A stretch of DNA of 64,000 bases, from NCBI GenBank assembly GCA_002256025.1, contig NKIB01013045.1, positions 1 through 64,000 of the forward strand, written 5' to 3'. Both the position numbers and the translations under genes were made by a program. Each line of letters starts with the position of its first letter. The first letter of the stretch is position 1. This DNA comes from Asterionella formosa (taxonomy: Eukaryota). The notes beneath the pieces are model-generated. The model made no database searches and was not told the DNA's origin. It saw only the letters and a program-made list of their open reading frames with translations. Positions 1-63,525 of this stretch are shown here, one piece after another.

Positions 1-602
1 CAACCCAGACAGAATTGAATGCCGCAAACAAAACCAATGGTGTCTTGGTACAAACGAATTGGCGATGCGCCATTACCTGCAACAAAACATCTACTGCTTA
101 CTTACCAGATATATTGATACAATGGGATGTGGCAATGCACCAGTCCCAGTTGCCGGAGCGATACCGCCACCATCAGCCTCAGGTGAAGAGGACAACGAAG
201 ATGAAGTCGTGGTGACAGAAGATTGATTTATGTTGTTCTCGCCAGTGTGGTATGGTACCTGGTACCCTGGTACCGGTACCATACAGCAATTGTTGTATAT
301 AGATATGAAATACCGGTACCGGCATATGATGCGTCCTACATGTAGTGATTCTGCGACGATATTTATTGGGTTTCTAGTGACTACATTCAAAGTAGTCAAT
401 ATGGAATCCTACGTTTAGGTAACTTTTGGGAAGAAAAACCTAAACGTAATGCCTTTGGGTAACTTATTGGGATATGGGCACGGAATCCCCTAAAGGTAAT
501 GCGTTTGCTTTGGGTTTTTCACTCCCGTTAGCATCGTTTTTTAGGGTTACCGAAAACAAAACACTGTTTGGTTTGCGTTTTGGTCCACCGTTAGCAACGG
601 CC
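1..602 (+). mobile_element. Right end of a PIF/Harbinger-like DNA transposon (truncated by the window edge)
   Basis: Frame-2 ORF tail 2..226 (NPDRIEC...EEDNEDEVVVTED*). Subterminal repeats follow (CCGTTAGCA at ~525 and 588). The end CCGTTAGCAACGGCC is followed by TAA (603-605), the Harbinger-type target. Its reverse complement TTA-GGCCGTTGCTAACGG resembles the left end at 10467. Confidence 0.5.
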
Positions 603-605
603 TAA

Positions 606-956
606 TGAGTCACAAGGACTGTGGACTCGACTCTAGTCCAATGAGTCAAATGGTGCGTTCCCATGTCAAGAAGCTTGCTAACGAGATTGATGTCTTAGAT
701 CAATCAGAAGAAGGTTTACATCAACGAAAAGGGAACACGAAGAACAGGTTCTCGAAGTGTGATGAATGGGATTGAAACTTAGTTTTAGTTAAAGCTTATA
801 ATTAAGAAACAGTGAGAATTGACAGAGTAAGGTCAATAGCGAAAACTAGCACGAAGGCTAGCAGCAGAAAGGAGATAACAATACTAGTGATACAACAGGT
901 AAGTCCTACGGAAGAGGAAACCCGTCAGACGGGAAGGAGTACGAGACCTTTGAACA
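606..956 (+). mobile_element. LTR-like repeat, copy 1 (5' part interrupted by the Harbinger end)
   Basis: Aligns by eye with 2377-2700 and 45740-46121 (AAGCTTATAATT, GAAACAGTG..AATTGACAG..AAGGTCAAT..CTAGCA.GAAGGCTAG, GGGAAGGAGTACG). Ends TGAACA. Confidence 0.6.
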
Positions 957-1171
957 CAAGGATGCATGCACGTGTTGGTCAGTGCATTGAATTTTAAGAA
1001 TTCTTTTATTAGTAAATACATTTATATTCGCGAATATGCGTATTAATATTCATAAAATACCGGTATGTGTATATGATAGACTGACACTATGATGTTGTGG
1101 AAGTCATGTCTATTTAGTTGTAGCAGTGGACTTCTCATTTCGGTCCAGCTGACAGATTCGGGACAATATAG

Positions 1172-2148
1172 CTAAATTCTATCGGGGCAGCCTGTGCCCT
1201 TAACTCTGCCATCTTCGAGCGCCAAAGTCACTAGACTGTTATACTTTCGCCCATAGGGTGGCGATAGAAAGTCATCGTGGTACTGATCATGGGTTGGGTT
1301 AGGGGTGTTGGTCACTCAATACAAGTACATCTGCCTTACATCTACTAAATGACTCACCTGGTGGTAAACTTCAGCTTGGTAAAATGGAAATTCTTTCGAG
1401 TCCATCACATATACAATTTGTTTACCCAATGTGTCTGGGTCGTTTCCTTTGCCAGCTTTAAGCGTGAAACCAGCATCAATTGCTGCAGCTTCGATGCCTG
1501 GGTACAACGGATGACCAGGGCCTCCAGGGAGTCCCAATAGAGAACGGTATTCTCCACCACGATCCATCGGGTCAACGCGATCTATCAGACTAGCCGGTTA
1601 GTTGCAAGCCCTTGCGCTACCAACAAACCATTGACTACGCATGTTGTGGGCTTACCTTTCGTTGTGGGGTTGAAGAGACTGAAGTAAACCTTGGCGAAAT
1701 CAACAATTGATTTTTCGGGAATACTCATACCAACGACCTCGCCGTGTCCCATCTTTCCATAGTCAGCAATGTTTTGAAAATTGTGGTAACACACTCTCCC
1801 TTCTTTGTCAAGTTTGGATCCGCCAGCGTATCCGGTGCGGGACGATAGCTGATGGTCGCTTCTTCCCAAAAGCTCTCGCTCTGCTCCAATGAATTCATGC
1901 TGAATGTGCCAAAAGCACCCAACTCCAAAATAAACGTTAGTGAGAAGTTCAGGATCCGCTGAAATAGTACCGGCCTCAGCATGCCGAGGTAAGAAGAGCA
2001 CACTTGTTGCAGCGGCAATCATACTTCCAAGAGCACTACGTCTTGAACTGATTTCGGTGATCTTTCCGACGTATCCCGGTACATTATTAGAGGAATATGC
2101 CTGCACGTGTTGTGTGAGAATAGATGCAAAGACAATAGCGGACTTCAT
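1172..2148 (-). CDS. msrA: Peptide methionine sulfoxide reductase A-like protein, probably plastid-targeted. Exons 2148-1656, 1581-1358, 1282-1172.
   Basis: Motifs YFGVGCFWH, TGYAGG, GHGEVV, GGEYRS and FYQAEVYHQY. GT-AG introns 1655-1582 and 1357-1283 join the ORFs in frame and give the C-terminus GCPDRI*. The N-terminus is signal-peptide-like. Confidence 0.85.
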
Positions 2149-2335
2149 CTTGATCAGGGTGAACAATTTTTCATTGTTTTGTGTCGTGGTCCAATCGAGC
2201 AACGACAAATGGATCTGGTGATATTCTTCTTTCTTACCGGTAATATTTTTTTAATTTATGTAAAGACCTACATGTTATGTGTATTAGAGCGACAGACGTA
2301 TAGATGTATTTATATTTATTCTAACTTGTACCGTG

Positions 2336-4945: not shown

Positions 4946-6004
4946 CTAAAAAAATACTTTCAATAGGTTGTATAGAGTAAAGCCTAGGATACCCAGCTTC
5001 CACACTTCCTGTGTTCGTACTTGCGCAATAAATAACTCTGGCGAAAAACTTCCGTCTGCATTTGTACCAATTTCCATAACAGTTCGATACAAATAAAACG
5101 CACTCATGGCCTGCGAAAAGCCAAGTTTGGAAATGAACGACCGTTTAGGTGGAGTTGCCATGTTGGAAGGGACAGGCGTGTATCCACCAGTTGCAAACTC
5201 TTGATCGAGCTCCGCGTCCATCTCTGCCAGCTTGCGGGCTTCTATCAATGCTTGCAACGACGAAAACTCAAAATTCTTTCCAGCGGAAGCGTCGTCAAAT
5301 CCAAGTTTATATGCTTCTTCTAGTTGTACTTTCGAAATGGCAACCAGTGGAGCCGACGTTGCAGAACCCTTTGCGACCGCAGCAGCTGCCTTGCGCGCAC
5401 CACTAGAAAATATCAATGATTGCAAGCAAAGGAGCACCATTAAAGCCACAATGCCAGTCGCCATCGTATTGTTGATCTTTCCTTTCAGAAATGGAACAGA
5501 CTGCTCGATTGCTTCTCGTGATCGCATAGGAAAGTTGCGGAGTACAGTTTTGTAGTCAGATCCATTCACAAGGTCCGGACCGGCCACGACAAGAATTAGT
5601 AATGCGGTACTCAACAACATGAGAGTCTTGGTGAACCCAAATAAGAGCACACCCGCAATGATAGTAGCGAAAATAATTCCCGCAACGTATTCTGGCTTGA
5701 TTCCCAGCTTGCTTTGCACGAGATTGTAATACTTCGTAACTTCCCCTTTCACACGAGGATCACGTCTCAATTGCTCGTATTGTGCCTTATAGCTCTCAAT
5801 CGTCGACGCTCTGACTAGGTTCTCTGGTTTCAAAGCCATCGTATGCTGGTCAATTACCATATGGACTAAATAACGCCCTCGACTGACGTCAAACTGAACC
5901 GCTATGCCAAGAAGACCATTTACTTCTGGACGGGAGGTGTTGATGACTTTGACGACTGTCGAAGGCGGGTTTGAGAGGAACGAAGAAGGATCAGAGGGCA
6001 ACAT
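4946..6004 (-). CDS. Hypothetical membrane protein, 352 aa
   Basis: Long intronless ORF. It has an N-terminal SH3/KOW-like segment (RPEVNGLLG..GRYLV..LKPENL), several hydrophobic helices and an AYKLGFDDA motif. Confidence 0.85.
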   Translation of the reverse strand: MLPSDPSSFLSNPPSTVVKVINTSRPEVNGLLGIAVQFDVSRGRYLVHMVIDQHTMALKPENLVRASTIESYKAQYEQLRRDPRVKGEVTKYYNLVQSKLGIKPEYVAGIIFATIIAGVLLFGFTKTLMLLSTALLILVVAGPDLVNGSDYKTVLRNFPMRSREAIEQSVPFLKGKINNTMATGIVALMVLLCLQSLIFSSGARKAAAAVAKGSATSAPLVAISKVQLEEAYKLGFDDASAGKNFEFSSLQALIEARKLAEMDAELDQEFATGGYTPVPSNMATPPKRSFISKLGFSQAMSAFYLYRTVMEIGTNADGSFSPELFIAQVRTQEVWKLGILGFTLYNLLKVFF

Positions 6005-6648
6005 GGGAGAAACTTTTCAATGAGATGGCTTCTGCAACCATCTGATTTTGAATGGAGCGAAGCAATTACCGGTGGTATCATGTACGAATCCTTTGCTTCG
6101 AACAGCATCCTCACCAAAGTACCAGTGAATACGGGGATGTACTACCGGTAGGTTAGGTTGCTATGATGTACTATCTATATTACATAGAGTTCATAATTTG
6201 CTTGGTATTCAATTCGCTGAGAGACAAGGGGCAATAGCGCACCATGCATCATGCATGAATGTGATGACGTTACTTTATGTGCCCTGGTACCGGTACCGGT
6301 ACCTGGTACCAGGACCATGGAACCGGAACCTGGTACCGTAAAACCTGGTGTCTAGTAAGTATCCCCCCATTACCTGTATCCCCTTTGTACATCTGGCACA
6401 ACACTCCCAAATATAATGTCTACAGAAAAAATGACAGTGTATTATTGTATTCTGGTTATTTGTTAATGTATTTATATTATATATGCAGGCAAATCACCAC
6501 AACATGTCTGTGTTCATCTGTTGTATGTGTCTTGCATACGACAAGCATCGTGTGATCCAGACCGGACAGGCGAGAGCAAAAAAGAAACCTTGTGTGAAAT
6601 GCTTTGTTGCATTTTCGGCCCAGCATGAACCACCACAACCTCGTTATT

Positions 6649-7806
6649 ATGCATGTTCGCCTTCTCTTCTCTAGCACCTTAGTGCTGTTTCTGACGATGA
6701 GTGAATCGTTTTTATTGCAACCTTCGCTGCTTACTGCCAAAGTTTGTGCACATAAATGCGCCCTGTTTTCTAGCAGTGACGACGCTTCCCGCTATAGACA
6801 ACAAGCTGAACGCCTTCGTGAACAGATTCGTAAAATGGAAGAGCAGCTTTTGAAAGACCGCCCTCGAAACTACGATCTTGCGCCCTCTGATTTCACCAAC
6901 ATAGACGACGAGTTCATGAGCCTCAAAGGCAAGCGCATCCTTGTAACTGGTGCAAACGGCAGGCTCGGTTCGATGGTCTGTCGATATTTGTTGCGGAATC
7001 ACCCTCAAACTGAAGTTGTAGCAGCTGTTCATTATGTAGGTGAAAACTCGTCAACAGCTCGCGGTTATGGTAGATTAGCATACGAAATCGGTGCCGAAGA
7101 TGGGGTTGGAACAATCGGACCGGCCTGGAGTGCAGAAGAACGAACGGCCTCGTTTCGGTACTCTGATGAAATGAAGGATTATAATTTGCAGAATATTCGA
7201 TTGGTAGAAGTAGAACTGTTGGATCAGATTCAATGCAACAGTATCATGGAAGGGGTGGATTCAGTAATTTGGTGCGCCACTGATTTTAACGGGAACAAAC
7301 CACGGGCTGTGTCAGGGTTAAACGTTGCCTTTTTATTTCGAGCCATCGTCGACCCAATGAAGGGAAGAGTAGAAATCGAAGGTTTCCGAAATATACTGGG
7401 TAGCCTCAAACAAGAACTTCAATCGAGAAGGGGGAAGGAGGGATCTTCGAGGTCAGCCCTGAAGAATCATAACCCTGTCAACATTGTTCTAGTATCAGCG
7501 ACTCCCGAAGCCTACAACGATTTCGAGACTCCCTTTGGTTCATTTAATGGGCTCAAAAGGCAAGCAGAAACAATGCTACATGAAGATTTTCCTAGTTTGA
7601 CATACGTTGTGTTACAAATGGCGAAGTTTGAAGACAATGTTGTGGATGAGGGCCTCGTTATCCTCACTGATGATGGAAATTGTGGCTCAGTTATAAATTC
7701 CCGACGAAGGATTAATAGAAGAGATGCCGCAAGAGCAGCGAGTGATGCGTTAATAGACAATGCGAAAATCGGAAAAGTGGTTCAGGTTTACACTACTTTA
7801 AAATGA
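6649..7806 (+). CDS. NAD(P)-binding Rossmann-fold (atypical SDR/NmrA/Tic62-like) protein, probably plastid-targeted
   Basis: Motifs ILVTGANGRLG, GVDSVIWCA, VEIEG.RN and INRRDAARA. A signal peptide ending SES-F-LLQP resembles the diatom ASAFAP motif. ATG 6649 is preferred over the ORF-caller start at 6604. Confidence 0.88.
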   Translation: MHVRLLFSSTLVLFLTMSESFLLQPSLLTAKVCAHKCALFSSSDDASRYRQQAERLREQIRKMEEQLLKDRPRNYDLAPSDFTNIDDEFMSLKGKRILVTGANGRLGSMVCRYLLRNHPQTEVVAAVHYVGENSSTARGYGRLAYEIGAEDGVGTIGPAWSAEERTASFRYSDEMKDYNLQNIRLVEVELLDQIQCNSIMEGVDSVIWCATDFNGNKPRAVSGLNVAFLFRAIVDPMKGRVEIEGFRNILGSLKQELQSRRGKEGSSRSALKNHNPVNIVLVSATPEAYNDFETPFGSFNGLKRQAETMLHEDFPSLTYVVLQMAKFEDNVVDEGLVILTDDGNCGSVINSRRRINRRDAARAASDALIDNAKIGKVVQVYTTLK

Positions 7807-8547: not shown

Positions 8548-9966
8548 CTACCAGTGATCCGTATTCATATCCTCGCTACCGGTTTCGGTGATATATTTCG
8601 ACTGTTCATTCGCTGAAATATTATCCTTGGCCACACCATTATTACTCGTGACCATTGCCAGGCAGATTGGTGACATGGCCCCAAAGTTTGGCGGATACTT
8701 GACCCGGCTGCTGGCAAAGCGCCGGGCATACAAACCATCAGATTTTGGCTCACGTCGAACAAGATTTGCGAGAAGAGGGCGACCCCTTAGAAAGTATTCA
8801 TGATAATAGCCACCCGCCTCGGGCCCTTCACATATTCGCTTGAACCCGTACACGTTTAGCTGTCGTTTGAAACTTTCAAGCCTAGTTTGATGGAAGTATC
8901 TCTGCATGACTTTGCTAGAAAACCTATGCCCGTCGAAGATCTTGAAGGACCTCCCGTGGGCAAAGAAAGCTACCAATTCATGATCATCGACTTCGACTAG
9001 CATTCTATACAATTTCACAGGAAAGGATTCCATTTGTGATCCACGTGACCGCAGGTTCATCAATTGTTTCTCAGTTGGGTCAGGCATGGGGGAAACGTCG
9101 GTGTATGTCCCATCATTTGTAACAAATGAAGTAGCTGGCAAAAAAACATTTGATTCTTTTGATTCTATAGAGCTTCCTTTTCGAATTAAAGAATTGGACT
9201 GGGGAGAAGTTAGATTTGACCTGGAAATAAGTTCCCGTGGGGACTCGCTTTGCTGAGGTCGATGGTTGTTGTCGTATGAAGAAAGGTCTGTGGACCAGGG
9301 AAAACCAGTGATTTGTTGTCTCCTAGACGGGAGATAGAGAGTGTGAGCATCCACAAGTGCTGACCATTCAAGGAGCTGAGTGGCGTGGCGATTGAAGTCA
9401 ATTCCGAGACTACTACCACCGGTCATGGGCTTTTTGCGCAAAACGGGGTTGGTAGCGAGATTGTCCATCGCTGACACTACCAGAGCCTCACGTCGAAGCA
9501 CTTTGGTGTTCTCTACTAGTTCTCTTCCCATAAAAGCTACTCGATGAGCAAGAAAGTCCCGGTAAGAATGGTCAATTATTGCCTTTTTCGACAACAATTG
9601 AGAAAATTCATTCTCCCGACGAGTCAAGCAGATCGATTCGCGATAGTGATCGCCTGCTGCAAGGCCTGTTGGAGCAGGATTCATCACAGAGCCTGTATCC
9701 GATAGCCTTGGATGTCTAGATAGCAATATGAGATCAGCGGCAGCCTCGGAATCAAAGAATGAACCTGTTTGGGACAAATACTCTGGTTTTGATGAGAATC
9801 GCGGCATTCGTTCAAGTGCGGCTTCCTGACCTATTCGATAATCAGCAACACCTGTATCTATCACTTCCTGAAATGATTTCGGTGTCGTCAACCCAGTTGA
9901 TGCCAGTTTCGAGGCTACGCTTTCAGACGTAACTTCAATCCTACTTTTTTCAATCGAAATTTCCAT
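8548..9966 (-). CDS. HSF-type DNA-binding transcription factor
   Basis: C-terminal HSF domain: SFPVKLYRML..HGRSFKI..QRYFHQTRLESFKRQLNVYGFKRI..GGYYHEYFLRGRP. First real ATG at 9966. Confidence 0.92.
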   Translation of the reverse strand: MEISIEKSRIEVTSESVASKLASTGLTTPKSFQEVIDTGVADYRIGQEAALERMPRFSSKPEYLSQTGSFFDSEAAADLILLSRHPRLSDTGSVMNPAPTGLAAGDHYRESICLTRRENEFSQLLSKKAIIDHSYRDFLAHRVAFMGRELVENTKVLRREALVVSAMDNLATNPVLRKKPMTGGSSLGIDFNRHATQLLEWSALVDAHTLYLPSRRQQITGFPWSTDLSSYDNNHRPQQSESPRELISRSNLTSPQSNSLIRKGSSIESKESNVFLPATSFVTNDGTYTDVSPMPDPTEKQLMNLRSRGSQMESFPVKLYRMLVEVDDHELVAFFAHGRSFKIFDGHRFSSKVMQRYFHQTRLESFKRQLNVYGFKRICEGPEAGGYYHEYFLRGRPLLANLVRREPKSDGLYARRFASSRVKYPPNFGAMSPICLAMVTSNNGVAKDNISANEQSKYITETGSEDMNTDHW

Positions 9967-10883
9967 CTCTAGAATTGGTTTGTGGTCTGTACTTCTTTGT
10001 TCGTGTTTGTGTGAAGGACTTTGTGTGTGTGTGTGTGTGCATGAAGGATGGTTTATTGCTTTTTTGTGTTTCAATTTAATCCTATCGGTATCTCACAGAA
10101 ATGCCAGAATATATATATATACCAAAGTCGTTCTTCGCATCCACTTTTCTTATGTCATCAACCTACCGGTAAGGTACTGTAATCGGGACGAAACACTCAC
10201 ATGGTTCGTTTAAAGTTATGATCACGTCCTTGGTTCGAGTACCAGTGTACACATGGTACCGTATATTTTCCTTCTTCCGATCGATGACAGCGTGCTGTGA
10301 TCGCTGAGGAGACCAGTTGCTCGTGCTTGCGGATATATTCCACTCTGAGCGACTGTTTGTATCATTAGTAGTACTATTCAGGGCTAAATATATATATATC
10401 TGATATTTGAAATCTTATTGCACGCGCTATTTACCACGAATTCATGGCAATTCACATGCATTGTCCTTAGGCGCCCCCGTCTTACGGTGCCCGAAATACG
10501 AAGATTGAGTCGCCCGGATACCTGTTGGGCGTTAAATCTTCGTAATTTTGTCCCTTACGGGCTAAATAACTCGCAAATCCCCCCCCGATTACCAATATTA
10601 AACTTCGTTCGCCCGACTACTTCGAGGGTCATCCCCGATATTGACCCAATCTTCCTATTTTCTTGAACAATCTACGTTTCCCGAAGATTAATCTTCGGGA
10701 AAAAGAAGATTGTCTCCACCAATCAGAATGTCGGAAACAATATATAATCGTCATCAGATATACTGATGATATAGTATTCGATACTTCGATACTTCTATTG
10801 TAGTATTATTGTCATTATTATTAGATATTTTTAAAATAATAATTCTTACTTTTAATATTTTTGTTGTGATAATAATTTGTAAC

Positions 10884-13800: not shown

Positions 13801-14026
13801 GGTTCAGTAATTGTTGGGCAATGAAGTGTATATCTGGTGGCAAATGGTGCTTGTTTCACCAATGTGCCGTGGATTTTGTCTCCCAGGGCAAGGAGGGAGC
13901 CAGCATCTGGATGTTGCATTGGTGTTTGGAGTACCGAGAATGGGTATGCTGTTTTGGCTGCAATATTTCATGTAAACGTGACACTGAGCTGTACTAGATA
14001 GTTTTGGTTGTGGGAATAATAATTAC

Positions 14027-14616
14027 AGATCCAATATCGGGGGTTCAGGATCTTGAAGTGCTCAGGACTTGGTTGGAAGCACCTCAAAAACCTTGAATCT
14101 TGGGAATCTGGGGAATGACTTAGTGGTTGTTAGCACGTCCACTGTGGTGGCGGGTTTAATTCCTGCATTCTCCACCTGTCTTTTTCATGTAGTCCCTAGG
14201 GTTCCGGAGGGTGCGGCTGACGAAAAGACAGGTCACGTTGTACTGTACGGACGAATAAAACCGGTACTTATTGTGTCCATCTCTATTATATTGGTGGGCC
14301 TGAGTGCAATTATTGTATAGATCCAATATCGGGGGTTCAGGATCTTGAAGTGCTCGGGACTTGGTTGGAAGCACCTCAAAAACCTTGAATCTCGGGAATC
14401 TGGGGAATGACTTAGTGGTTGTTAGGACGTCCACTGTGGTGGTGGGTTTAATTCCTGCATTCTCCACCTGTCTTTTTCATGTAGTCCCTAGGGTTCCGGA
14501 GGGTGCAGCTGATGAAAAGACAGGTCCCGTTGTACTGTACGGACGAATAAAACCGGTACTTATTGTGTCCATCTCTATTATATTGCTTGGTGGGCCTGAG
14601 TGCAATTATTGTATAG
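14027..14616. repeat. 292-bp tandem duplication (2 near-identical copies)
   Basis: AGATCCAATATCGGGGGTTCAGG occurs at 14027 and 14319. ORFs 14069 and 14361 are near-identical and offset by 292. Confidence 0.95.
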
Positions 14617-15777: not shown

Positions 15778-17959
15778 AAATCTTAATCCTTTTTTCCACC
15801 CCATGGTAAAAAACCAATGCTAAAAAGGTCTGTCTGTTTTCCACATCCATAAGATTTTGTAAGTTTTCATATCATCACACTTCTAGAGATCGATCGATCG
15901 TCAAATCGAATTCTGTGTTATCGATATCCTCAATAATACCGGTATTACAAAATTGCGTCGGGTGTACGTAGGTTTCGCAAACTGACTAGATACCGTAGTA
16001 TTTTTGGTGGCCTCGGCAGGGCTCCTTGTCCAGAGGAACGAATTTCATTTGAGGTCTTGTTTTCCTGTCACAATTGATGATTGACCGTACTGATTCATTT
16101 TCCATAAAAAAGCATTAGAATAAATTAGCTTTGCAAACTTCGTCGTATTCCTTACATCGCGAATCAAGTTGACTGATTGATATGATACAGCTTCCTTGAC
16201 GTCACTGCTCAATATTGTATATTGGATTGATACCAGCTAACTTTAAAAGTACTGTGCCGATCTGGGATAAAACGCTGCTAGTAGTAGTTGGTAGAAACCC
16301 AGACTTTGTCGATCTTCATGTTCCAATGATTAGGCACATGCAAGGACCAGTGGAATCGATCGCGTATTTGGATTTTTCCAAATGAATTAAGTAAAAAGAA
16401 GTTTCTATATCGATGTAGATTGTAGGTCCTTATTGTGATGTGCAACTTTGATGACTCCAAAACAGTTTCCTGCGTTTCATACAGATCTCTTATGAAAAAT
16501 TTTCAGACTGTTTGTCTTAATGGCTTTTGGGAGACTGCTGTTGGTTTGTGTGATGATTGGAATACATACTTCCTTCCCGGGGATAAATTTTAACACTGTT
16601 CGTTGCTTTTCTGTGCTTTCAAAAAAGCCACAGATTATCATAATTTCGTCGTCGTCTTTCTCATTCCTTTCCCGACGTTTGCGAAGATCATAATAGACGA
16701 ACACTGATGAAGTACCTTCATGATTGTTAGTGAGTCTTTCCTTCATGCCGTGATTATCAATCAGTATTTTAGTGTGTGGTATGCTATTGTAATTCTTCCT
16801 GTTCCGATGTGGTTACTGTTCTCTCTGAAATCCTGTTCTTCTGAAATTGCTCCGCCGTAGTGGTGTTGAAATTGTTCTTCTGTTTTGGAATGGTTGTAGG
16901 GACGACTGTTGCTGGATGCACCGATTGTAGTTCGGTATTGGTATCGACATGTTGAGTTGGGTGAGTTTGCCGAATGCCGATTTTCTGTTGTAGCAACCCC
17001 TTTATTCAAAGTTGCGAAATAGTTGGAAACATTCCCGGTCGTTAAGGCAATTGCTTACGCTTTGGCGCGGCTAATTTGGATTTTACGCAGTTTTGATTAT
17101 AATTTCTATAATTGATCTGTTCTTCTGTTGTTGTGCCATGCAATGCGAGCTTGTCTCCGACTATAGCGGTGAAAGGGGAAGTGATTGGAACTTGTTTCTT
17201 CTCTACCGATGACTCTCTTGCGATGTTCGTGAAACAAAACGCTTGCGGCCCTGCTTTTAATGATGATGATGCCTTAAGGGAAGAAGGCGGAGAATTTTGG
17301 GGTGACCATGTGTGCTAATTTTTGGCGGCTTTCGTAAGTATAACCTCTTCCCATTCGTTTGCGCACCGAAAAAGTTGGGTTCTCTATGAAATTGTTCTAT
17401 CCATGGTAAGCAGAAAAACTTTTCTTCCACGGTAATTTGTTCAAGCTTTGGCAGGCTTCGATTTCTTTATTCGGATTGAACAAGATATGAAAGTGTACGA
17501 AAGTCCAGGTCAAAGAAACCATTTGAATGAAACTTGCTTGATGGCTCAGCAAAACGTCGTACAAAGCTTGCTCATGATCTAGCTTGAAAGGCTTCAGAAT
17601 GTTTCGAAATCGAAATTATTCGTTTTACCTTTCTTTCATGTCTGTTGATACCAGCATCAAAAATCCAGTTAATTGGTTAATTAATTGTTTGCAATCCTCC
17701 GATCATTCCGCAGTTTTTTATTCAGTTTTTGCCGAAAAATAATATTTCACAGCGTTCAATTATATAAGGACCTCATGAAGAAACTGGCATTGTCAATGAA
17801 ATACCATGCATTGACATGAAGTGTACTAAAAAATTAAAAAATCTCAGGTTATTTAGTAGGTTCCACTGATTTCAACTTACTGCCCAAAAATAGTAAGTTG
17901 TGGTTATAGCATCCTCCACATTTTTACGCCATGAAGTTGTACTTGCATATCGGACTATG

Positions 17960-24881: not shown

Positions 24882-25432
24882 GGTAACAAAGGAATGTCAA
24901 CCACTGAGCAATAGCAGCTGACAAGCAACAGAGACGAATGAGCCGAACTTTCTGAGAAAAGTCCAAACGGTAGTTCCTTCCCTTTCATAAGACAGTTGTG
25001 AATAACCCATGATATAAACCGACGAAATCAACCTGCTACCTGGTACCCGGTACCGTGTACATCTCCTCGGGGTTCCATGGTACCAGTGTACCACATAAAA
25101 ACTGAGAATCATACAAACTTTCAGTTTTGTACTGATAGTCATAACAAAACGGTGTAATCACACGGTTTGAGACGAATATTTGTAATGTTATAAATCTGTA
25201 TTTTTTTAGACAAAGTTCTTCCTTAGGATATAATGAACAGCATTGTTCTTACTTGAACACTGCAATCTCGTACCAGTTCTTTTATTCATAGTAGCCCAAA
25301 ACTGGCTGTCGACGTTATTGGTCCAAATCAGTTTTACCCCATTGAGCCTGCATGACTTTTTCAACGCATCTGAGAAGCTGAAGCTATATAAATAATTAGC
25401 TTGTTTCAAGACTTTTCCGCATCAGTACTATG

Positions 25433-27000: not shown

Positions 27001-27002
27001 CA

Positions 27003-32269: not shown

Positions 32270-33040
32270 GGTGTCGTAACTGCTTTATTAAATAGAAAGG
32301 GAAAATAGGGTCGAAATCAGCGGGTTGCAACGGCTAACCGATATGCAATTGAAAACTACAACTCGAATGAAATTCAGAATTGTGTTCACATTAAAATCGG
32401 TACATAATCCAATGGATCGGTAGCTAAGAATACTACTACTGCTGGATCAACTTACCTACATGTGATACCTCTATTCTTGTTGTCGACGTCTATTTATTAC
32501 ACAGTAGCTACTAGACTAATAATGGTATTAATTAAAAAGTGTATTTATAAAACCAAGTCCGTTTTCGCTACGTATTTACCATAGTACCGGTAATGCTGTC
32601 GTGATAGAATGTTGTACCAGGTACCTGGTACGTATGGTGAACGAGGTTGCTCCTACCGTTACCAGGTATTAGTTGGTAACAGGGGTACCTGGTACCAGTA
32701 GCACCAAGTATGTGTTCATACCACCAGGTACCAGGTACCAGGGTACCGGGTAATTCATAACATAGATAAATAGATTTTTCCTTTCGACTCTCGTTTTTCA
32801 CTGGCTGTGAGGTATCAACGGGGCGCGTTTCAGACGTACACATAATGACAACATACCGTACACACGAAAAAACCGTAATGTACAACAAAGAAAAACCGGT
32901 TGCATTGACGGTTGATTTTGTACTCCCTTTTTGGTTGAAAAATCAAGTCTGATTAGTCGTAGAAAGTCCGGGATGTGCTTGATGATGCATAAAAATATGC
33001 ACCTGAAGATGGTGGTACCAGTACCAGGTACCACCTGGTA

Positions 33041-36800: not shown

Positions 36801-37322
36801 AAGTCACGTTTCTTGTTTTACTGATCCTTTCCATGAAATCTATGAAATGCCATTTGGAAAGTTGTCAAACAAGGGCCAGAAGACTATGAAGCAAAACAGT
36901 GGAAGGGAAACACGGAGCTTTCTGCGTCGCTTGGTGTGGAGGTGCAACTGGTGTGATGGTAACCGAGTGTAGGAATTTTTGAACAGAGCACAGTGTAATA
37001 TGCATGTTCCGCCAGCGTAGTGTTTACACAATACATATGCCGGTATATATAGCTTTAACAAGGAAAAACGACATGACGATGGACGTGATGGCTTGTGTTT
37101 GGGGATACCGGTATGTGATATGCATCAATCCATATCACAAATCATATTATGGTCATGAACATATCATAAATATATCATAAACATTTTAATAGATCACCAT
37201 AGTTCAATGATCAATGTATCATAGCTATGTGATATACTTTATTCAATATTACGTATCATATTTTGGCGATGTATGCATCGACGTAATCCTATCGTGATAT
37301 CACATTATCATCTTATCAATCA

Positions 37323-39797: not shown

Positions 39798-40671
39798 GAC
39801 CAACGTTGATCTCCAGGATTTGGGTTGCGAGGGATTTTCTGTACTAGTTATTCTTTCAAAAACTCACAAATGCGTGGGGATTGTGACAAGTTTTTTCGTT
39901 TCGTGAGCATAAATTTTACATTAACCTTGCTTTACTCAATACTATAAGTTTCGAACCGAATTGGTATCGACAAGGCCGGAAGAACAATTCCGTCCATGAA
40001 ATCAGATCCTGTTCCCAGTACGAGCAGTATGGTTATTCCTCCTTCATAATCACACCATCACACAAGATCAAAGATCAACACACATTATGACAGGTGGATC
40101 ACAGTAAAAACCACGAATAAGAGGAAGAGAGTGGCGTTAGCAGATTCTACGATCAGAAGTGCAAGTAAAAGCTTGAATAAGATAGTTTAAACGTCAAAGG
40201 AAAATGACTCATTCATATTTAATTTCTGGTTTGCAATCAATAATCTCCCTTTGTCTTCCTCATTTCAGAATTGTTGTCTTCTCGGCACGAAGAACTATCG
40301 TTGACACGTTGTCCTCAACAGACTATGCTGAGGAAATCTATGATGAACATGTATTCCGGTATTTATCATTACGACCATGTCGAATGAATGACAACGATCT
40401 AAAAAACACAAACGACTTGTCATTCACAAACGCATATACCGGTATATGTATGTGTGTAAATCTATTTGTATATAGACTACCGTTAGCTATGTCAGTACTT
40501 ACATATGTATAAAATATGCCGGTGTGTGGGTGCAATTGCTTATTTAAGAGATGGCATAATACCGGGCTTCTAACGGCTGGGTTCGCAAACTTCATTTGTA
40601 TTTTCTTGTAAAGCATAAAATCCATCCATTCACCCCTAGATTGTTCCCGATAGACCACCGAAGCTCGAAAC

Positions 40672-45719: not shown

Positions 45720-45725
45720 TACCTG

Positions 45726-46121: not shown

Positions 46122-46569
46122 TACCTGGTACCTGGTTCTAAACAACCGCTACTTTCCATACTAGAGCCAGTACCTGGTACAGACCACTTTCACAAACCGT
46201 AGCTTCGTAAGGACAGCATGCATGTCATGAGCATTGTCTAAGCAAATCAGTATTACAGGACTGGCTGGGTAACAGCATTTAGGTATGACATTACAAAGCG
46301 GTAAGTACCAGTACCGGTATGTCATGAAACAACCCCGATTTACTGATGATTTCGATTATAATACAAAAATTGTTTCTATTTTTCGTTTTTCACTTCATTA
46401 AGCCAAAAGAGTCATTTAAAATTTAGTTTGAAAAATATTCTATCATTGATAGAAATTTTTATTGCTTTGGTACATATTTAGTCAAAAAAAGTAATCATGA
46501 ATTCCTGAATTTTCCGATGCAAAAAGTGTAGCGGACAGAAAACATTGCCATGTCCATTATCCCAACTCC

Positions 46570-47685: not shown

Positions 47686-47932
47686 TGGGTCTTACGGGGA
47701 TTTAGATACATAGTAGGTAACTTTCAAATAGCATCATTATATAACTTCTGGCAAGAAACTGCAGAAAAGAACTTCGCTTTTTTAAATATGCCAAATTAAC
47801 AGATTTCCCCCTAATTTTCGAGTCTTTTTAGCATAGTTTAAAAACCGAAGTTCCTTTCTGCAGTTTCTGACCAGATCATATATACTGACGATATGTTGAG
47901 TGAACCTAAACCCCTACTTTCTCCGAAGACTG
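47686..47932. repeat. Long imperfect palindrome (foldback/MITE-like)
   Basis: 47747-47795 and 47825-47875 are inverted copies, with weaker pairing extending outward. The right end is GACTG|TA. Confidence 0.75.
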
Positions 47933-48147
47933 TATTTAAGCAAATGGAAAGGGTGTCTATTGGTGAAAGCTCCGTTGTGCGTTATACAAATTTAATTTAT
48001 ATGTGAAAAGTACGTGTTTGATTAGTCTGGCTCAATATTATTTTATTAACCCTACCTCGAACTACGGGTTCAAATCCAGCAACCTCAAAATTTCCGCAAC
48101 TTGCAAGACCAGTACCTGCTACAGGTACCAGCTCTGGTACCAGGTTA

Positions 48148-48244
48148 TGGTGCCTGGTGCCTGGTGCCTGGTGCCTGGTGCCTGGTGCCTGGTGCCTGGT
48201 GCCTGGTGCCTGGTATCTGGTATCTGGTATCTGGTACCTGGTAC
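48148..48244. repeat. Heptamer microsatellite (TGGTGCC)9(TGGTATC)3 TGGTACC TGGTAC
   Basis: Read directly from the sequence. Confidence 0.97.
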
Positions 48245-48797
48245 ATAAATCCACAACAATACAATATGCCGTACAACGTAGACTTATTACCGTACCCGGT
48301 CTGTATGTTACTGTTTACAGGCAGTCTACGGTTATCTGCTCCAGGTACCCGGTACTTCGGTATTGGTTGAGTACTAGTGCATCTCGAAAGTTCATGACAT
48401 TTACCGGTGCCCGGTAACTTACCAGGTAGCATACTACCTGGTAGTCAACTGGCATATCTCATACTTAGAAATACCTTGATTTTCCATACATAAATATGTA
48501 TATTGGGGTACCGGTATGCAGTCTCATCAGCGGGCAGAGGGGGAGCAACTTGTTATAAGCAAGCGCGAGGGAGACCGCTACCAGTTACCCCTGGTACCAA
48601 ACCACAAGCAAACAAGCAACAAGGAAATCAAGCAATTTTTCGGTATTAATTATCCTGTTGACTTCTACGCACCTGGTCAGACAGGAAAAAGTTTGGATTC
48701 GCCATGCAGCGGCAGGTTTGTCGTCTATTTCACTCTCTTGACCTATTATTATTCCACCAAATACACCACATACTCGACTCTATACATAATTTAGACT

Positions 48798-54700: not shown

Positions 54701-55124
54701 CTTAAACCTACCAATGTCGACATCTGCGGAAAGTTATTTTGAAACCGACGGCCCCATGCGAAGTACTGAAGAAGTAGAGTGGATAGAGGTCGCAGCAATA
54801 TTTGAGACTGTGAACTTGGAGGGTACTCTGTCCGTGAAACGGTCGAAAAAAATGGGTCACCTTCGAACAAATACTGTCGGGCCTCAGAAAATCATAGCGC
54901 CGTTCTGTCGAAAACTTGAAAGTGCACTTACAGACATTTATGAAGAAGAGTCTGACATCGATGAAGATTTGAGCGATGAAACTATCCTTCAGCGGCATCA
55001 ACACATACTTGATGTGATGAAAGAGAAACTTGACAGGGTGATGGAAAATCGTCCGTTAACTGCACAGCAACGTGCCCGCAATCGAGCTGAGGCTCGAAGA
55101 AATACCAGCATAGATGGATTTTGA
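48798..55124 (+). CDS. Large low-complexity, probably nuclear protein (~2059 aa). Exons 48798-53477, 53542-53838, 53922-55124.
   Basis: GT-AG introns 53478-53541 and 53839-53921 join three ORFs in frame. It has NLS-like basic clusters and a C-terminal IIAPFCR..EDLSDETILQRHQ segment. Confidence 0.88.
52701..52892 (+). repeat. Coding minisatellite, 5 x 39 bp (IAERxxSSSSIGG)
   Basis: ATAGCTGAGCGAC..CTCAAGTTCATCGATTGGTGGT repeated in frame. Confidence 0.95.
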
Positions 55125-56399
55125 AAATCGATCACTAAGTAGACAGATAAGTGGTAGACATTGTTTGCGTTGGACTGTAGGTGTTTTTAAAAGTGAAGAA
55201 GGCAACCGTGAACCAAAGGCGCAAAGGAGTGGTCGCAATTGAATCGAGGCCCTGAAGGGGTGGGGCGTCAGCAAAGAATGGTAGTGTGTAACGTCGCCAG
55301 ATGACGCGATTGGAAGAAGCAGTTGCTTTGGTTTCTTGGGCGAAATCCATCAAGATTCCCAAGTGCGGGAAAAAGTTCCATTTTCTTATGCATGCAGTTT
55401 ATGAGCCTGACACATTTACTGTACATATATACCGGTAGATGCTTCGTTCGCGCAACAGACGATGTTATGTGGATGGACTTTATTTATGTTCATGGCAATA
55501 CCAGGTATTATGTACTCTAGCGGATAGATGAATGACCAAAACATGTGTATGCATAACGAAAAGTATAAATACGTGTTCTTTTCCGCTGGAAGTTATTGCC
55601 CTTGTGACGAATGTCATGCACGAATGTGACTTGAAAAGGTAAAACCTAACGAAAAAAGCAACAGGGAGTTATATCAAAAGGGCAATTGTCCAACGCATAG
55701 GAACGAGGACGCTGATGTCTGCGGCGAACTGGCAAGCAATGGCGCAATGAACTTAATAGCGACCCTGCAAATAATCCATGGCAATCAATCCATGACTACC
55801 ATTTCCTTTTGAATGAACGAATCAGCAAAAATTGATCCTTACAAGAGAAGTCTAATTGTTGGTCGAAACAGATCACTTTTGAAGAAAAGCGGGTGTGTGG
55901 GCAGAAGAAGTAACTTACGTTTCATGTGGATGCAGCAGGGGAGCGATATTCCGACGAGTTTTCTACCTTCTGTCTGGTAACTCATTCTACATTTATTTCG
56001 AAGGAGAAGCAAATTGCTCCCTTACCTCAAACTGGATTGAAATATCATTTACGGCTAATCGCATTTATTCTTCCAGCACATGACATGTTTTTCCATCATT
56101 TCCGGTTGAAAAGAAACCAACAAAGAATATAATGCGAGCCAAAAGGAGTGCATAATACTGTTTGTTTGTGCTGAGGTGTTGCAGTACATACTACATGGTA
56201 CCAGGGTACCGGTACCAGGTACCCTGGCTGGTAACGGTATGTAGAGGGGCAATAGTCGACTGTAGATGCAGGGACTTTAAGGCGATGATTCTCCTGCGCG
56301 CAGATGAAAATATCAAACTGAATGTATCATAATAGCGGTACATACATATTATTTAGTACTCGCAGCATTATATACCGTAGCATATTAGCCGGCAATGTT

Positions 56400-58481: not shown

Positions 58482-61428
58482 TTATGATAGCTTATCAGCT
58501 TCTACCATTGCCATCAACTCTTCACAGACCTCTTTCAAATCTTTATTCTCTAACACTAGCTTCTCCTTTTCTGCAACAATAGATCCTAAGCTAAGATGTG
58601 CTGCTTTGCAGTTTTCATTAGACTCGTCAAGCTTCGTTTGCATGTCTCTTTGAGTAGCATTCAGCCTCTCGACAACTATAGTGTATTCCTGGACTTTTCT
58701 GGCTGAGTTCGCCTCATTTGTTGCAATGACTAAAATAGATTGAGTGAGATTTAAAACAAAAAAGCCATCACGAAGAAGTATGCTTACCAGCCTTTGCTTG
58801 AGCTAATTCTGCCGCCATATCCATCTCTTTGGTTGCTTGTTCCTTCCGCGCCACTTCAAGTATTATGCTCATAGCCTGTATTTCACGTTCTGCCTTCCCT
58901 AATCTAGCTACTGTCAATTCGAACTCTGATTTGAGGCGCAAGTATTCCACATTAGCTTTGGCAAACTGCTCCTCAGCTGCAGCAATCATTTCTGCTCTGA
59001 CCTCGTCTCGAGCCTCGTGGCGCTTCCGTTTCTCGTCATCCATCGCCTTCTTGTGTTCAAGTTTAGATCGTTCCCATGAGCCTAACAACGTCGAATATTG
59101 AATTTTCGTCAAGTTTGCCTCTTCTGTCGCCGCCTTTAACGCATCAACATATGTTTGATGCTCGGCATCTAGCTCACTACTTCGACTGGTGGCTTCGGCT
59201 AACTGAGTTCCAAGTGCGGCAATAATTGCGTCCTTTTGCTTCATCTTGGTTTCCAGGGCGATAGACACTTTCTTGTTCTCTGCTTCAACCAAGTCTAGCT
59301 GAGAAATTAATTCATCAATCTCACCGGTGTGCTCCTTACGTAATTCTTGCACTCGCGTTTGTGAATCACTGTGGGCCCGCTCATTGTCAGCCTCCAACTT
59401 AGACACTAGATCAATGAGTTCTTTCTCACGAATGCTGGGTTCTAAATGTTGTGAAAGGGCTTCAACCTTTTCGCATTCCAGTTGTACCCTCAAAAGGCCG
59501 AGCTGCGTCTCTAATTCAACCTTCGACTGCAGTCTCTCAGCCTCATGCTGTGCTAACATCTTATCGATTTGAGTTGAATAATCTGCGGACAAAGATAGCA
59601 GTTTACTCTCAAGTACTTGAATTTTCTTGTGACTTTCGCGCTTCTCGTCGTCACATTGGGTGAAATAGGAACTGTGTGCTTCATCAAACTTGGCCTTCAT
59701 TCGTGCTACCTCGTCCATGTGAAACATCTCCATTTTCTCAATAGCAGCAGCTTCTATGGCACTGGAAGTAGAAGCTTTCTCCACTAAATGATTGATTCTC
59801 TCTTGCAACTCCTTCCTCTCCACCTCGAACGCATCGACCAGTGATTGTCTCGCTGTTGCGAGTTCAGTCACCACAGTATGCATTTCAGCTTTATATTTAG
59901 CATCGGCCAACATGCGCTGTGAATTATAATCATCGTGTAACTGACTGATTTGCACTTCGTATTGCATCTGCAAATCGTTTCGAACTTGCTTTTCCTGTGA
60001 AAGGAGATCATCAATCGAGGAACGAAGTTGCTGGATGTCTAACTTCAACTCCTCCGCCTCTGCATTCATTCGATGGGCTTCTTCGACATGAATGGCCACT
60101 ACATTTTTTAGTTCGGTATTCAGCTCGCTGATGTCGTGAGCGTATTTTGTATTCGCCCTATTATTCAGGGACTCCACCTCATTTTGATGCATACTTGAAA
60201 TACTGGCAATAGCCTCCTCGTGCTTAAAGCGAAGTAGATTTAACTCATGATCAAGACTCAATGAACACTCTAGCTCCAGAGCTTTCTTCACATTTTCTAT
60301 CGCGATTTTGTGTTCAGAGTCACATTTACTACGTTGGTTTGTATGATAGTCTTCAATTTCCTGGATGGCTATTCCATGCTCAGCTTTCATCAACACAATT
60401 CCTTCCCCGGTATTTTTCTCCAAAAGATCTATCTTTGCTTGCAGCCCCTGAATAACGTTAGCACTGTTACCTTTGAAAGTGGTATGTTCCAGCTCCAGCT
60501 CCGCGACACGATCTTTAAGGTCTCGATTTTCAGTCTCAAAACAATTCTTCATGTGATCCGATGCGTTTTGGAGATCAGCCACCTTGGATTTTTGTTGGTT
60601 AACTAATTCTTCAACCATATTTTCATAGTTGCTATGCGCGAGTTTGACCATCATCTCCATCTCTTCAACAATCTCCCGTTCCAATTCAGCTTTTCGGGCC
60701 TCCACCAAGGTATCCATTTGGGATTGAAGCTTTGCTACTTCTTCCTCGTGCTCAGCACTCCAAGCAGCACCATGTTTCTCCAATTCTTCTTGTGCTTCTT
60801 TCTGCACTCGCTCGGTGATTTCCTTCTCAAATTCTTGCTTTGCTTGTTCGATCCATAATTTTTTGGTCCTCTCAAGAGCTTCGTCCATCTTGGCTTGTAT
60901 TTGCACCGACGGTGAGCTTGACCGCTCCTCACTATCACTGAACTGAAAGTTTTCATTTCCAATTCGAATTGGATTGAAGCGTTCGCAAAAGTCATCGGGC
61001 AAAAATGCAGTGTCGTCAAAGCCAACTAAAGCTTCTGATGAGGCTGAAGCCTGGACCTTCAGTTCTCCGTCAAAGCTGTCATAGGCATCGTAGAATTTCT
61101 GAGAGGATTGATTCGGGTCAACTTTGAGTCGAGAGAGAGCTGGAGTAGGAATGGCCAAACCTGGGGTCTTCATGGCAAACGAAGATTTATGTTGCGACGG
61201 AGTGGAGACTTGGAAATGTCGTTGGAGGTCATCCTTGGTGTGGGGCGATTCCCAACTTGATGCTATTGACGTCGTGTCATCGGACATTGTAAGATCAAGT
61301 TTGATACCTTGATTATCATTATTTTCATCCATGACGCCCCTGAGCAAGTTTGTTTGACTCTTTCGAGCTCTAAGTCTTGCAGGTGACCCAGTGAGCAAAG
61401 ATTCAATCATTTCCAAATCACGATCCAT
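58482..61428 (-). CDS. Long coiled-coil protein with a TACC-like C-terminus. Exons 61428-58788 and 58729-58482.
   Basis: Extended heptad-rich E/K/L region. Intron 58787-58730 gives the tail ENKDLKEVCEELMAMVEADKLS*. Confidence 0.85.
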
Positions 61429-62939
61429 TCGCTTTAGCTTAGGTATATTGCTGATGACCACGACGCGGTGTTTGATTTGAGGATGTATGAATAAATAAAC
61501 TAATGGAAGTCAAAATGAAAGATTCACAATCTCAAAATCGTTGTATGGATGGTGCTCAAACTTAACAATAGAGTCGCTTCTTTTCCATGGTCGCATCCAT
61601 GCATGGGCGATCGATAGTAAAATAAAATTTAAAATCGGAACATTATCAGCAATGCTACGACTGCTGAATGTATATACCGGTACCGGTTTTTGTAAAAATT
61701 ATCCGGAATGTACACCAAACACCTACCTGTACCTGTTTACATGTTGCTTGCTTCTACCACTTTGCCTCCGGCAGTGATACCGGTAGGACCTAGTGCCGGT
61801 ATAACGGTACCAGGTAACTGTATATCATACCTGCACTTGCCGCCGGGTCTCTCAACTGTGCTACCGGTAACGTCGTAATCATAACGACAGAAAAAAAACT
61901 CGGTACCGGGTACCTGGTAACTGGTATCTGGTAACATACCTGTTACCAGGTACCCGTTGCGGTACCAGGTACGAGGTACCGGTACCTGGTACCAGGTACC
62001 GAAGAATGACCTTGGTAACAGGTACTCTGCTAACCATCAGGTACCTGGTACCAGGTACTCCTGGTATGGTACTCTACATACCTGATAATCGGTAGAAACA
62101 GGATCATACTGGTATGCATACCACCGTTGCCGTGTTAAATACCGGTACAATCATTTACCGGTGTATGTACTGTAACCGACAAAATATTTCAAAATTACAA
62201 AACTGTTGTGACTTGCTTGCTTGTTCGTTGCTGTGTACATTCGTCGTCCGCCAAAATGCGCTGGTATGTCTTATGTACCGGTATACCTTATAATTCATTG
62301 TCCTGGCCATTCACTTATTAAGGTTGCGGCCCCGGCTTAACCCTAGTTCGGAGAAAATATCGCTAGGGTTGTAAAAACGGCGTGGAACAGGGAGTTTCCT
62401 GCTACGAATTCTCATGATTCGAGTGTCCATTTGAATATTTGAATTAAATAGGAATCGGCGCCAGATTGATAGAATTCCATTAAAAAATGATATTCAAACA
62501 TTTATACTATTTCGACGTTGCTGAATGTAGACATAATTTTACTCAACGCCAAAACACATACATAAATTGGGAGTATTCCAACATGTATGCTCATGGCTCT
62601 TGTTTATGCGTTTATATTGAATCTACGTTGCTGAATGTAGTTTCAATATCACTTAACGCACAAAGGTATATACCGGTGTGTGAATCAGTACCAGTACCGG
62701 AGTCCCAGAGTAATGGTATTTCGGTACTCGGAGTACCAGGTAGTACACAATATTGGTTCATCATGATGGAGGACAGGATGTACTACTGGTGGTAGTACCG
62801 TTACTGATTTTACCAACCAGGATTCAAAACATCTAATACGTGTGGTTCAAGTGTGGCTGGCGAGATTATACTACCGGTAGAACGGGATACTTCAGCGAAT
62901 CTGAAGCAGGTGAATAAATTAAATTCAACCAATCAGAAT

Positions 62940-63525
62940 ATGTGTAGTGAAGCGGGAACTTACCCTGGAGTCTTTTCGGACTAAGAATTATTCAGCGAAA
63001 CATCCCTACACAAGACACCAAGTATACGAGAACGTTTTTGCACGTAGAAATTCTGATTCCAATATTTTGGCGACTGTTGAAAGAGCCGATCGGGTCGACT
63101 TTTTGGAGGAGGATTGCTCTACATCTACCGGTATGGGGTTTCATGAAGAATGAAATAGATAGCCGTGTACCCTATAACGTGAGGAGTTAACTTCTGCAAA
63201 GAAGTGGCAGTTATCCCTCGTAGATATTTTCAAAAGCTTGATGGCCCCCTTTTTTGACTATTTTTGGATAGTTATGATTCCAAGAGAGATAACTGCCACT
63301 TCTCTCCAGAAATTAGGTCCTTGCCATATCTGAATATAGATCATAGCCCTAAGTCGAGGAATGACTGTATCTAAGCATATGCAAAGTGGTCGTCTTGGTG
63401 AAAGCTAATTGTACCTTTAACTATTTTATTTCGTTGCGAGTACTGTGTAGATTAAAGTACACAATAAAATTAGGAAAAAGATATTTTGTCCCCCTATTTC
63501 GATATTTCGTCCCCCTCTTTTTATA
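62940..63525 (+). mobile_element. Tc1/IS630-like transposase 3' remnant with a putative right end
   Basis: Frameshifted TKYTRTFL, VWGFMKNEIDSRVPYNVEELTSA..KWQLSLVDIFKSLMA resemble the Tc1 C-terminus. ATTTCGTCCCCCTC..TA resembles a Tc1 TIR end. Confidence 0.5.

Follow-up and report, generated by a model that had tools for sequence, protein, structure and literature searches.

A 64,000-nucleotide (nt) stretch of nuclear DNA from the freshwater pennate diatom Asterionella formosa (GenBank assembly GCA_002256025.1, contig NKIB01013045.1, positions 1 to 64,000 of the forward strand; hereafter, the window) carries many short palindromic units, TA-CCGG-TA (TACCGGTA) and TA-CCWGG-TA, singly and in chains. 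Alignment of repeat copies shows that these units are gained de novo, with duplication of a TA, and are not conserved sites. The best explanation, although an unproven one that we hold tentatively and place somewhat short of an even chance, is that the units are excision footprints of a TA-targeting cut-and-paste transposon with CC...GG ends.

The motif TACCGGTA occurs 24 times in the window, compared with a mean of 0.27 and a largest value of 3 in 100 dinucleotide-preserving shuffles of the same sequence. All 24 positions listed in an earlier note on this DNA, made by eye, proved exact, and its judgment that the motif lies far above chance holds, although its expectation of about one copy was slightly generous. 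We tabulated the sequence X between consecutive TAs, with strands merged, against expectations from a second-order Markov model. Enriched cores were CCGG (24 versus 0.68 expected), CCAGG/CCTGG (together CCWGG; 25 versus 0.48), CCAGGG/CCCTGG (4 versus 0.13), CCCGG/CCGGG (4 versus 0.22), CCGT/ACGG (7 versus 0.87), and CCAG/CTGG (9 versus 2.5). Among the cores named in the earlier note, CCGG, CCAGG/CCTGG, and CCAG/CTGG are therefore enriched, whereas the short cores CAGG/CCTG (5 versus 2.1) and CAG/CTG (12 versus 9.5) are at about chance in the window. The spacing from TACC to GGTA is sharp, being 0 in 24 cases, 1 in 29 (25 with A/T and 4 with C/G), and 2 in 4. The most enriched 6-, 7-, and 8-mers of the window were GGTACC, ACCGGT, TACCGGTA, GTACCAGG, TACCWGGTA words, and their relatives. 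Lone GGTACC, at ~8 copies versus roughly 10 in total expected from base composition, is about as common as chance predicts; hence, the 8-mer and not the 6-mer is the unit (TA-CC(W)GG-TA), with GGTACC marking no more than the place where two units join. Perfect units number 49, in 23 clusters, with chains reaching ~15 units and a TACCGGTA density of about 1 per 2.7 kb.

The long or Pfam-supported open reading frames (ORFs), which span 34.8% of the window, contain none of the 49 perfect units (P = 5e-5 for uniform placement), and this bears out the earlier impression that coding exons are free of them. Clusters are found 5' of gene starts (2235, 6143-6337, 10164, 25037, 32585-33032, 48124-48598, and 61675-62058), but units also occur 3' of stops (254-320 and 55430-56223) and inside transposon copies (62734, 62872, and 63126), which argues against a promoter element of fixed position. 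Considered as selected sites, the units show no positional constancy relative to genes, and repeat copies that are 93% identical do not share them all.

Gain and loss of units were followed in high-copy repeats. By read depth, repeats at 100-1000 times single-copy level occupy 45335-46668, 47336-48669, and 62010-64000. A conserved 23-mer of one repeat retrieved five copies (L001-L005) on metagenome contigs of related diatoms; genome contigs and viral contigs gave no matches to the repeat-family pattern. We also compared the window with contigs and loose ends from four DNA sequencing runs (X1, X2, X6, and X8), counting only stretches that had cover as evidence. The repeat that served as a ruler is a TTAA-flanked element with terminal inverted repeats (TIRs): the window copy starts with TTAA followed by GGTTGCGG at 62318-62322, and L005 carries both ends (CTTAAGGTTGCTGCATTTGAACCCCTAG), inverted over 28 nt. 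Because these ends are unrelated to the units, the element was used solely as a ruler. Its family is non-autonomous, occurs also at about 47560-48092, has ends reading GGTTGC(G/T)GC..., and includes an internal hairpin (47728-47894 and 63182-63321); the TTAA target leads us to presume, as a provisional label, a piggyBac- or Kolobok-like element. A T-arm-like GGTTCAAATCC at 48070, considered as a candidate RNA gene, turned out to be part of a TIR of this family, and tRNA and Rfam scans of the window returned no matches. The last ~55 bases of L003 as stored (the match is on the minus strand) form an adaptor-like end, presumably a sequencing-library adaptor that was left untrimmed in the public ENA metagenome assembly.

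Alignment of L004 with window positions 62316-63472 (MAFFT; 1067 matches, 80 substitutions, and 6 gaps) revealed two clean 6-nt indels. At 62740, the window reads GAG-TA-CCAGG-TA-G and L004 reads GAG-TA-CCAGG-TA-CCAG-TA-G; the local repeat is 7 nt long and the difference 6 nt, so this is neither slippage nor a tandem duplication. At 63129 (TAC versus TACCGGTAT), the window reads CATCTAC-CGGTAT-GGGG, and L004 and the more distant L001 read CATCTACGGGG. The same 6 nt are missing in loose ends of X6 (6 reads) and X8 (4 reads) and in an X1 contig, which indicates that the window copy gained TACCGGTA at 63126. Both sites display the duplicated TA flanks and single-TA empty site of an excision footprint, cleanly at 62740 and, at 63126, with one additional C>T change. 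The gain at 63126 and the arguable one at 62872 had no pre-existing unit, and that at 62740 is not a tandem duplication; hence, slippage cannot have seeded them. In an older, 80%-identical repeat pair (3200 versus 27050), a 12-nt insertion at a TA reads TA-CCGC-TA-CTGG-CA, arguably a decayed double unit, as would be expected after ~20% divergence. The earlier note had proposed aligning repeat copies for TA versus TA-X-TA differences, and the alignments bore this out with two clean TA-duplicating 6-nt indels (62740 and 63129) and two arguable ones.

The remaining indels between repeat copies are ordinary short tandem duplications. One unit at 62796 is common to the window and L004 in mutated form (TACCGTTA versus TACCGGTA), indicating that units within repeat copies differ in age. 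The pair 47500 versus 62940 also shows the 6-nt gap at 63126, which was ambiguous at 75% column identity until L001 and L004 resolved it. Neither the pair 25380 versus 37910 (95% identical) nor the pair 560 versus 2335 (81%) contains unit-type indels, and BLAST searches that took each unit together with its 200-nt flanks and compared it with the window and the five loci found no further informative paralogs. Another repeat family is present in three copies that are 70-81% alike (45720-46120, 560-1000, and 2335-2800); most copies in X1, X6, and X8 have ~10 extra bases at 46050-46055, with a loose-end agreement of 0.96-0.99 in X1 and X6. DNA of related diatoms in other samples carries the motif as well: L001-L005 contain five TACCGGTA in 7,074 nt, two of them at the same aligned position in the near-identical L003 and L005.

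Perfect units are accompanied by imperfect ones. One-mismatch variants of TACCGGTA number 45 versus ~10 expected, and their commonest class (9/45) consists of the CpG-transition products TACCAGTA/TACTGGTA; six of the 45 are in ORFs, about the chance number. TACC (261) and GGTA (276) outnumber TAGG (113) and CCTA (127), an excess that points to many half or worn units around the perfect ones. The unit population looks neutral and decaying.

Slippage has also shaped the chains. Most copies in the array at 48148-48243 have lost the TA, which indicates growth by slippage of mutated units. The properties of a slippage microsatellite are seen at 48148-48242 and are lacking in the 13 lone units, in 6 of 7 adjacent pairs, which differ, and in the 6-nt gain at 62740. 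A search of prokaryote genomes for the chain pattern returned 43 bacterial microsatellites and no diatom DNA, and these 43 contigs (L006-L048), each with four GGTACCW units, served as the slippage control. They derive from Gemmatimonadota, Acidimicrobiia, Planctomycetota, Cellulomonas, Rhizobium, Streptomyces, and others, have adjoining variant blocks (for example, GATACCT, GGTGCCC, and GGTACTT), and probably represent heptamer microsatellites of an ordinary kind; 38 of the 43 show a uniform variable base. Adjacent perfect pairs were identical in 79 of 86 cases in the bacterial arrays, compared with 1 of 7 in the diatom (p = 1.5e-5), and the 11 lone TACCGGTA have no related sequence within 25 nt. 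Slippage therefore enlarges the arrays but cannot account for the seeds, which had no prior unit, or for chains of mixed neighbors. X1 and X2 contigs at about single-copy depth omit 62000-62039, between two arrays, and possibly represent a second allele. Chain-bearing contigs elsewhere in the genome have a loose-end agreement of 0.43-0.53, and such disagreement of the flanks indicates that the chains are not the ends of one high-copy element.

Window DNA is present in sequencing runs from 13 studies of lakes, fresh water, and algal culture. An X2 contig, from another study, spans 53872-56225 gap-free, including the units at 55430 and 55499 and the whole chain at 56197-56223. An X6 contig spans 53197-56117 gap-free (units 55430 and 55499), and a second X6 contig passes over the chain with one gapped letter. 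This agreement of independent runs shows that the units are real sequence and rules out an assembly or sequencing-adaptor artefact as their source. An X2 contig over 56198-62358 has 26 gapped letters. Differences of the TA versus TA-X-TA kind came to light solely between paralogous copies of repeats.

If the units are excision footprints, a TA would become TA-CCGG-TA or, less often, TA-CCWGG-TA, with 6 or 7 bases added and the TA duplicated. The source would be one or more elements of the IS630/Tc1/mariner type with ends 5'-CC ... GG-3', which would insert at TA and duplicate it. Such elements cleave by staggered cuts; at excision, each flank would thereby retain 2-3 end bases, to be sealed by end joining as TA-CC(W)GG-TA. 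Each scar would offer two TAs, such that nearby hits could extend a chain in which neighbors share a TA. Subsequent neutral evolution would comprise CpG decay (CCGG to CCAG/CTGG) and other point mutations, replication slippage and inverted duplication would expand 7-base units into arrays, and purifying selection would exclude units from coding sequence. A near-constant inserted core is as expected of transposon-end remnants. From this fit we infer the transposon as the agent, the identity of its ends, and recurrent hits at open chromatin; repeated cycles of insertion and excision at the same accessible TA may likewise have taken place. The units further resemble known footprints of this superfamily. 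Tc1 leaves the excision scar TA-CA-TG-TA and Sleeping Beauty leaves TAC(A/T)GTA, and the diatom units similarly have a duplicated TA with few constant bases between the TAs, a center that is absent or a single A/T, as at the mismatch position of the Sleeping Beauty scar, and a confinement to places where small insertions are tolerated. They differ from Tc1/mariner footprints in having no known donor and in their number, with ~49 perfect units per 64 kb and chains of up to ~15. Put more broadly, a highly active TA-site process in this diatom lineage could be writing a fixed palindromic core of 4-5 bases (CCGG/CCWGG) into non-coding DNA, contributing roughly a third of the small indels between recent repeat copies and feeding itself through the new TAs, to yield a eukaryotic highly iterated palindrome with chains; we regard this as possible but doubtful.

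Other origins for the scars were considered and rejected. Hairpin or P-nucleotide scars of the hAT type would not be expected to share a constant core, lone units lack a GTAC or 6-7-bp target duplication, scars of TTAA elements would read TTAA-GG..CC-TTAA, and the units are far too short for splice-site mimicry or introners.

A number of observations weigh against excision footprints. No TA-flanked CC...GG element was found in the window or in L001-L005 by scans for TA-flanked inverted ends starting with C or CC; these scans matched only the chains themselves and a weak 12/14 pair at 55501/56198, which was rejected as an element as its read depth matches single-copy DNA. Pfam searches of 60 ORF translations of the window (all 12 ORFs of at least 200 amino acids [aa] and 48 of 111 stop-to-stop ORFs of at least 90 aa) detected no Tc1/mariner transposase domain, and the transposon-related sequence recognized in the window comprises a PIF/Harbinger transposase fragment and the TTAA-flanked repeats. 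That the 64 kb and the further 7 kb lack the element says little, and a few tens of active copies, by rough estimate, could produce units at this density while rarely falling within a stretch of this size. CCA/TGG, which we take to be the classical mariner 3-base scar, is not enriched as a TA-bounded X in the window (8 versus 11.4 expected), and CCATGG (3+3 end bases) is absent from it; mariner leaves both 3+3 and 3-only scars, and the diatom units are unlike it in this respect. The informative indels are few (2 clean and 2 arguable). Exact TA duplication at 63126 (empty site C-TA-C and window C-TA-CCGG-TA-T) requires an extra C>T at the adjoining CpG, and the alignment at 62872 permits two readings: a gain of 6 nt accompanied by a 4-nt difference in a GATA repeat and 3 mismatches, or a 2-nt gap with 10 mismatches. 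Between the four runs, no TA versus TA-X-TA polymorphism was found among the 12 of 46 indel rows inspected, and 55430-56223 has no gaps in X2, nor in X6 save the one gapped letter. Among lone units, CCGG outnumbers CCWGG by 11 to 2, whereas the clustered units split 13 to 23 (Fisher p = 0.004); a single scar-forming process, acting alone, would give equal ratios and does not predict this skew. Finally, part of the chain growth is plain replication slippage (48148-48242). The footprint reading of the earlier note is thus upheld by the TA-duplicating gains, the near-constant core, the non-coding confinement, and the mixed chain neighbors, but neither the CC...GG element that it calls for nor a Tc1/mariner transposase was found in the window or L001-L005.

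An alternative, which we consider fairly unlikely, is a TA-site-specific insertion other than transposon excision, with slippage expanding its products. Candidates are a TA-cutting host or domesticated nuclease with repair that adds CCGG, or templated patches from unit-bearing loci. Such insertion fits the TA-duplicating 6-nt gains, the constant core, and the lack of a matching transposon in the window and loci, and the frequency of unit indels between the 93%-identical copies (2-3 of 6-7, by one count) is very high for insertion plus excision. Nonetheless, we know of no mechanism that adds a fixed CCGG at TA, the missing element is weak evidence given the 64 kb and 7 kb covered, and templated repair usually copies nearby sequence, whereas no nearby template was seen at 63126. 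Less probable still is an origin as ordinary micro- or minisatellites of GGTACC(W), made and expanded by slippage and broken up by point mutation, with lone TACCGGTA as worn remnants. The pure 7-mer arrays at 48148-48242, blocks of mutated units without TA, and parts of 61902-62058 do resemble heptanucleotide microsatellites, the identical heptamer is arrayed in the 43 prokaryote contigs, the X1 and X2 contigs omit a segment between two arrays, and CCWGG units are concentrated in clusters. Unlike such microsatellites, the diatom units include isolated 8-bp palindromes (11 TACCGGTA), have neighbors that mix 6- and 7-mers and A or T (identical in 1/7 versus 79/86 in bacteria), and arise de novo at TA, by gains of 6 bases in surroundings that are not repetitive, that at 63126 and the arguable one at 62872 having had no prior unit and that at 62740 adding 6 nt where slippage would add 7; lone GGTACC, moreover, is at about chance (8 versus roughly 10).

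Selection for TACCGGTA/TACCWGGTA as candidate sites for a dimeric DNA-binding protein (in a promoter, an insulator, or a nucleosome-excluding element) appears similarly improbable. The motif is palindromic and strictly non-coding, many clusters are upstream of gene starts, and sequencing runs of other studies show no change in the units at 55430-56223. However, units also lie 3' of genes (254-320 and 55430-56223) and within transposon copies (62734-63126) and are gained or lost between 93%-identical repeat copies, and a center of 0 or 1 base, TA-sharing overlap, and abundant decayed variants (45 versus 10 expected) are atypical of a selected site; word matches in the literature, among the titles listed, looked like primer, construct, or barcode papers only. 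A eukaryotic counterpart of cyanobacterial HIP1 (GCGATCGC), in which biased mismatch repair tied to a CCGG/CCWGG cytosine methyltransferase acts mainly by substitution, is very improbable. CCGG and CCWGG are classical methyltransferase sites, which speaks for this alternative, and the diatom unit is likewise a short palindrome far above chance (8 bp, about 1 per 2.7 kb). HIP1 occurs frequently inside genes as well, and substitution or selection is credited with its spread. HIP1 is an over-represented palindrome, and its link to methyltransferases is discussed in one report (PMC4390886). The diatom units, unlike HIP1, arise as 6-nt insertions and not by substitution, avoid coding sequence (0/49 in ORFs), chain, and decay freely, and the commonest one-mismatch class (9/45) is the T:G type (TACCAGTA/TACTGGTA) that repair of this kind would be expected to eliminate.

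The units and the other features discussed are listed in the table below.

Table. Palindromic units, chains, and transposon-related features in the 64,000-nt window
Feature	Positions	Strand	Context
Chain GGTACCTGGTACCCTGGTACCGGTACC, with TACCGGTACC at 311	254..320		Just beyond the stop of an ORF running off the window start
Lone TACCGGTA	1058..1065		AT-rich intergenic DNA
Lone TACCGGTA	2235..2242		Directly upstream of ORF 1585-2208(-)
TACCGGTA at 6143 and chain 6286-6337, reading TA-CCGG-TA-CCGG-TA-CCTGG-TA-CCAGG...	6143..6337		Divergent ORFs 4946-6004(-) and 6604-7806(+) on either side
TACCGGTA	10164..10171		~90 nt upstream of HSF-domain ORF 8548-10074(-)
Plant_tran (E=1e-9)/DDE_Tnp_4 ORF fragment, PIF/Harbinger-type transposase remnant (Pfam)	11427-11900	+	Gene-poor 10.3-13 kb
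Lone TACCGGTA	15937..15944		
Degenerate chain TACCTGGTACCCGGTACCG...GGTACC	25037..25084		Upstream of ORF 24039-24881(-)
Three unit clusters	32585..33032		Upstream of ribosomal protein S8e ORF 31487-32269(-)
Lone TACCGGTA	37106..37113		Outside 95%-identical repeat 37332-37858 (two copies, no unit-type indel)
Lone TACCGGTA	40437..40444		ORF 38448-39797(+) before, V-ATPase F ORF 40928-41407(+) after
TACCTGGTACCTGG, TACCTGGTA, and TACCAG-TACCGGTA units	46122..46319		Adjoin high-copy repeat
Cluster: TA-CCAGCTCTGG-TA at 48126, pair TACCAGGTAGCATACTACCTGGTA at 48420, TACCGGTA at 48509	48124..48598		Upstream of ORF 48798-53522(+)
7-mer microsatellite	48148..48243		(TGGTGCC) ~10 copies, (TGGTATC) 3, then TGGTACC
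TACCGGTA at 55430, TACCAGGTA at 55499, chain 56197-56223	55430..56223		Downstream of ORF 53976-55124(+)
Units and half-units	61675..61869		Upstream of ORF 58768-61461(-)
Densest chain	61902..62058		Imperfect 156-nt palindrome, 84-nt arms, 74% complementary, TACCGGTA at its center (61977)
Two TACCGGTA (62140 and 62276)	62140..62283		Immediately to the left of the TTAA-flanked repeat
High-copy TTAA-flanked TIR element copy	62322..63472	+	Ruler for unit gain and loss; L004 is a 93%-identical copy
TACCAGGTA within repeat	62734..62742		L004 has extra CCAG-TA
TACCGGTA within repeat	62872..62879		Missing in L004; alignment ambiguous
TACCGGTA within repeat	63126..63133		Same 6 nt missing (CATCTAC/GGGG) in L001, L004, X6 and X8 loose ends, and an X1 contig

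The genes of the window agree with its diatom origin. A 1195-aa ORF encodes exportin-4, with its best named relatives in Nitzschia inconspicua, a Bacillariaceae metagenome-assembled genome, and Pseudo-nitzschia at 46-48% identity and a closest relative at 72%; other genes include an HSF-domain ORF, ribosomal proteins, a mitochondrial carrier, and a V-ATPase subunit (Pfam). Within the 1574-aa ORF 48798-53522, a 39-nt (13-codon) repeat is present in five copies at 84% (52701-52896), and contigs of X2 and X8 align in two pieces that omit 52736-52774 (39 nt), a sign that the repeat may vary in copy number. Tandem repeats lie in the ORF-poor middle of the window, at 27001-27930 (194 nt, ~4-5 copies), 28190-28905 (198 nt, ~3-4 copies), and 14024-14616 (292 nt, 2 copies at 96%).

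The units are k-mer repeats that fragment short-read assemblies, such that some run contigs join distant chain loci, and they are a lineage marker. Their CpG and palindrome content could cause local instability, for example at the 156-nt palindrome 61902-62058. Literature searches (listings and abstracts) turned up no report of this motif or of scars accumulating at such density, and excision scars on this scale may be previously undescribed, as far as the searched literature goes. If no matching element exists, the units would reflect an undescribed TA-specific insertion or mutational mechanism. If they are excision scars, they would contribute heavily to small indels and to the birth of microsatellites in intergenic DNA, promoters included, and they would preserve a record of cut-and-paste transposition that leaves no element behind, a genome-wide and datable ledger of excision events. 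Diatom DNA transposons are, to our knowledge, little studied, and the density and decay state of such scars would give estimates of excision rates and target preference through time in this diatom.

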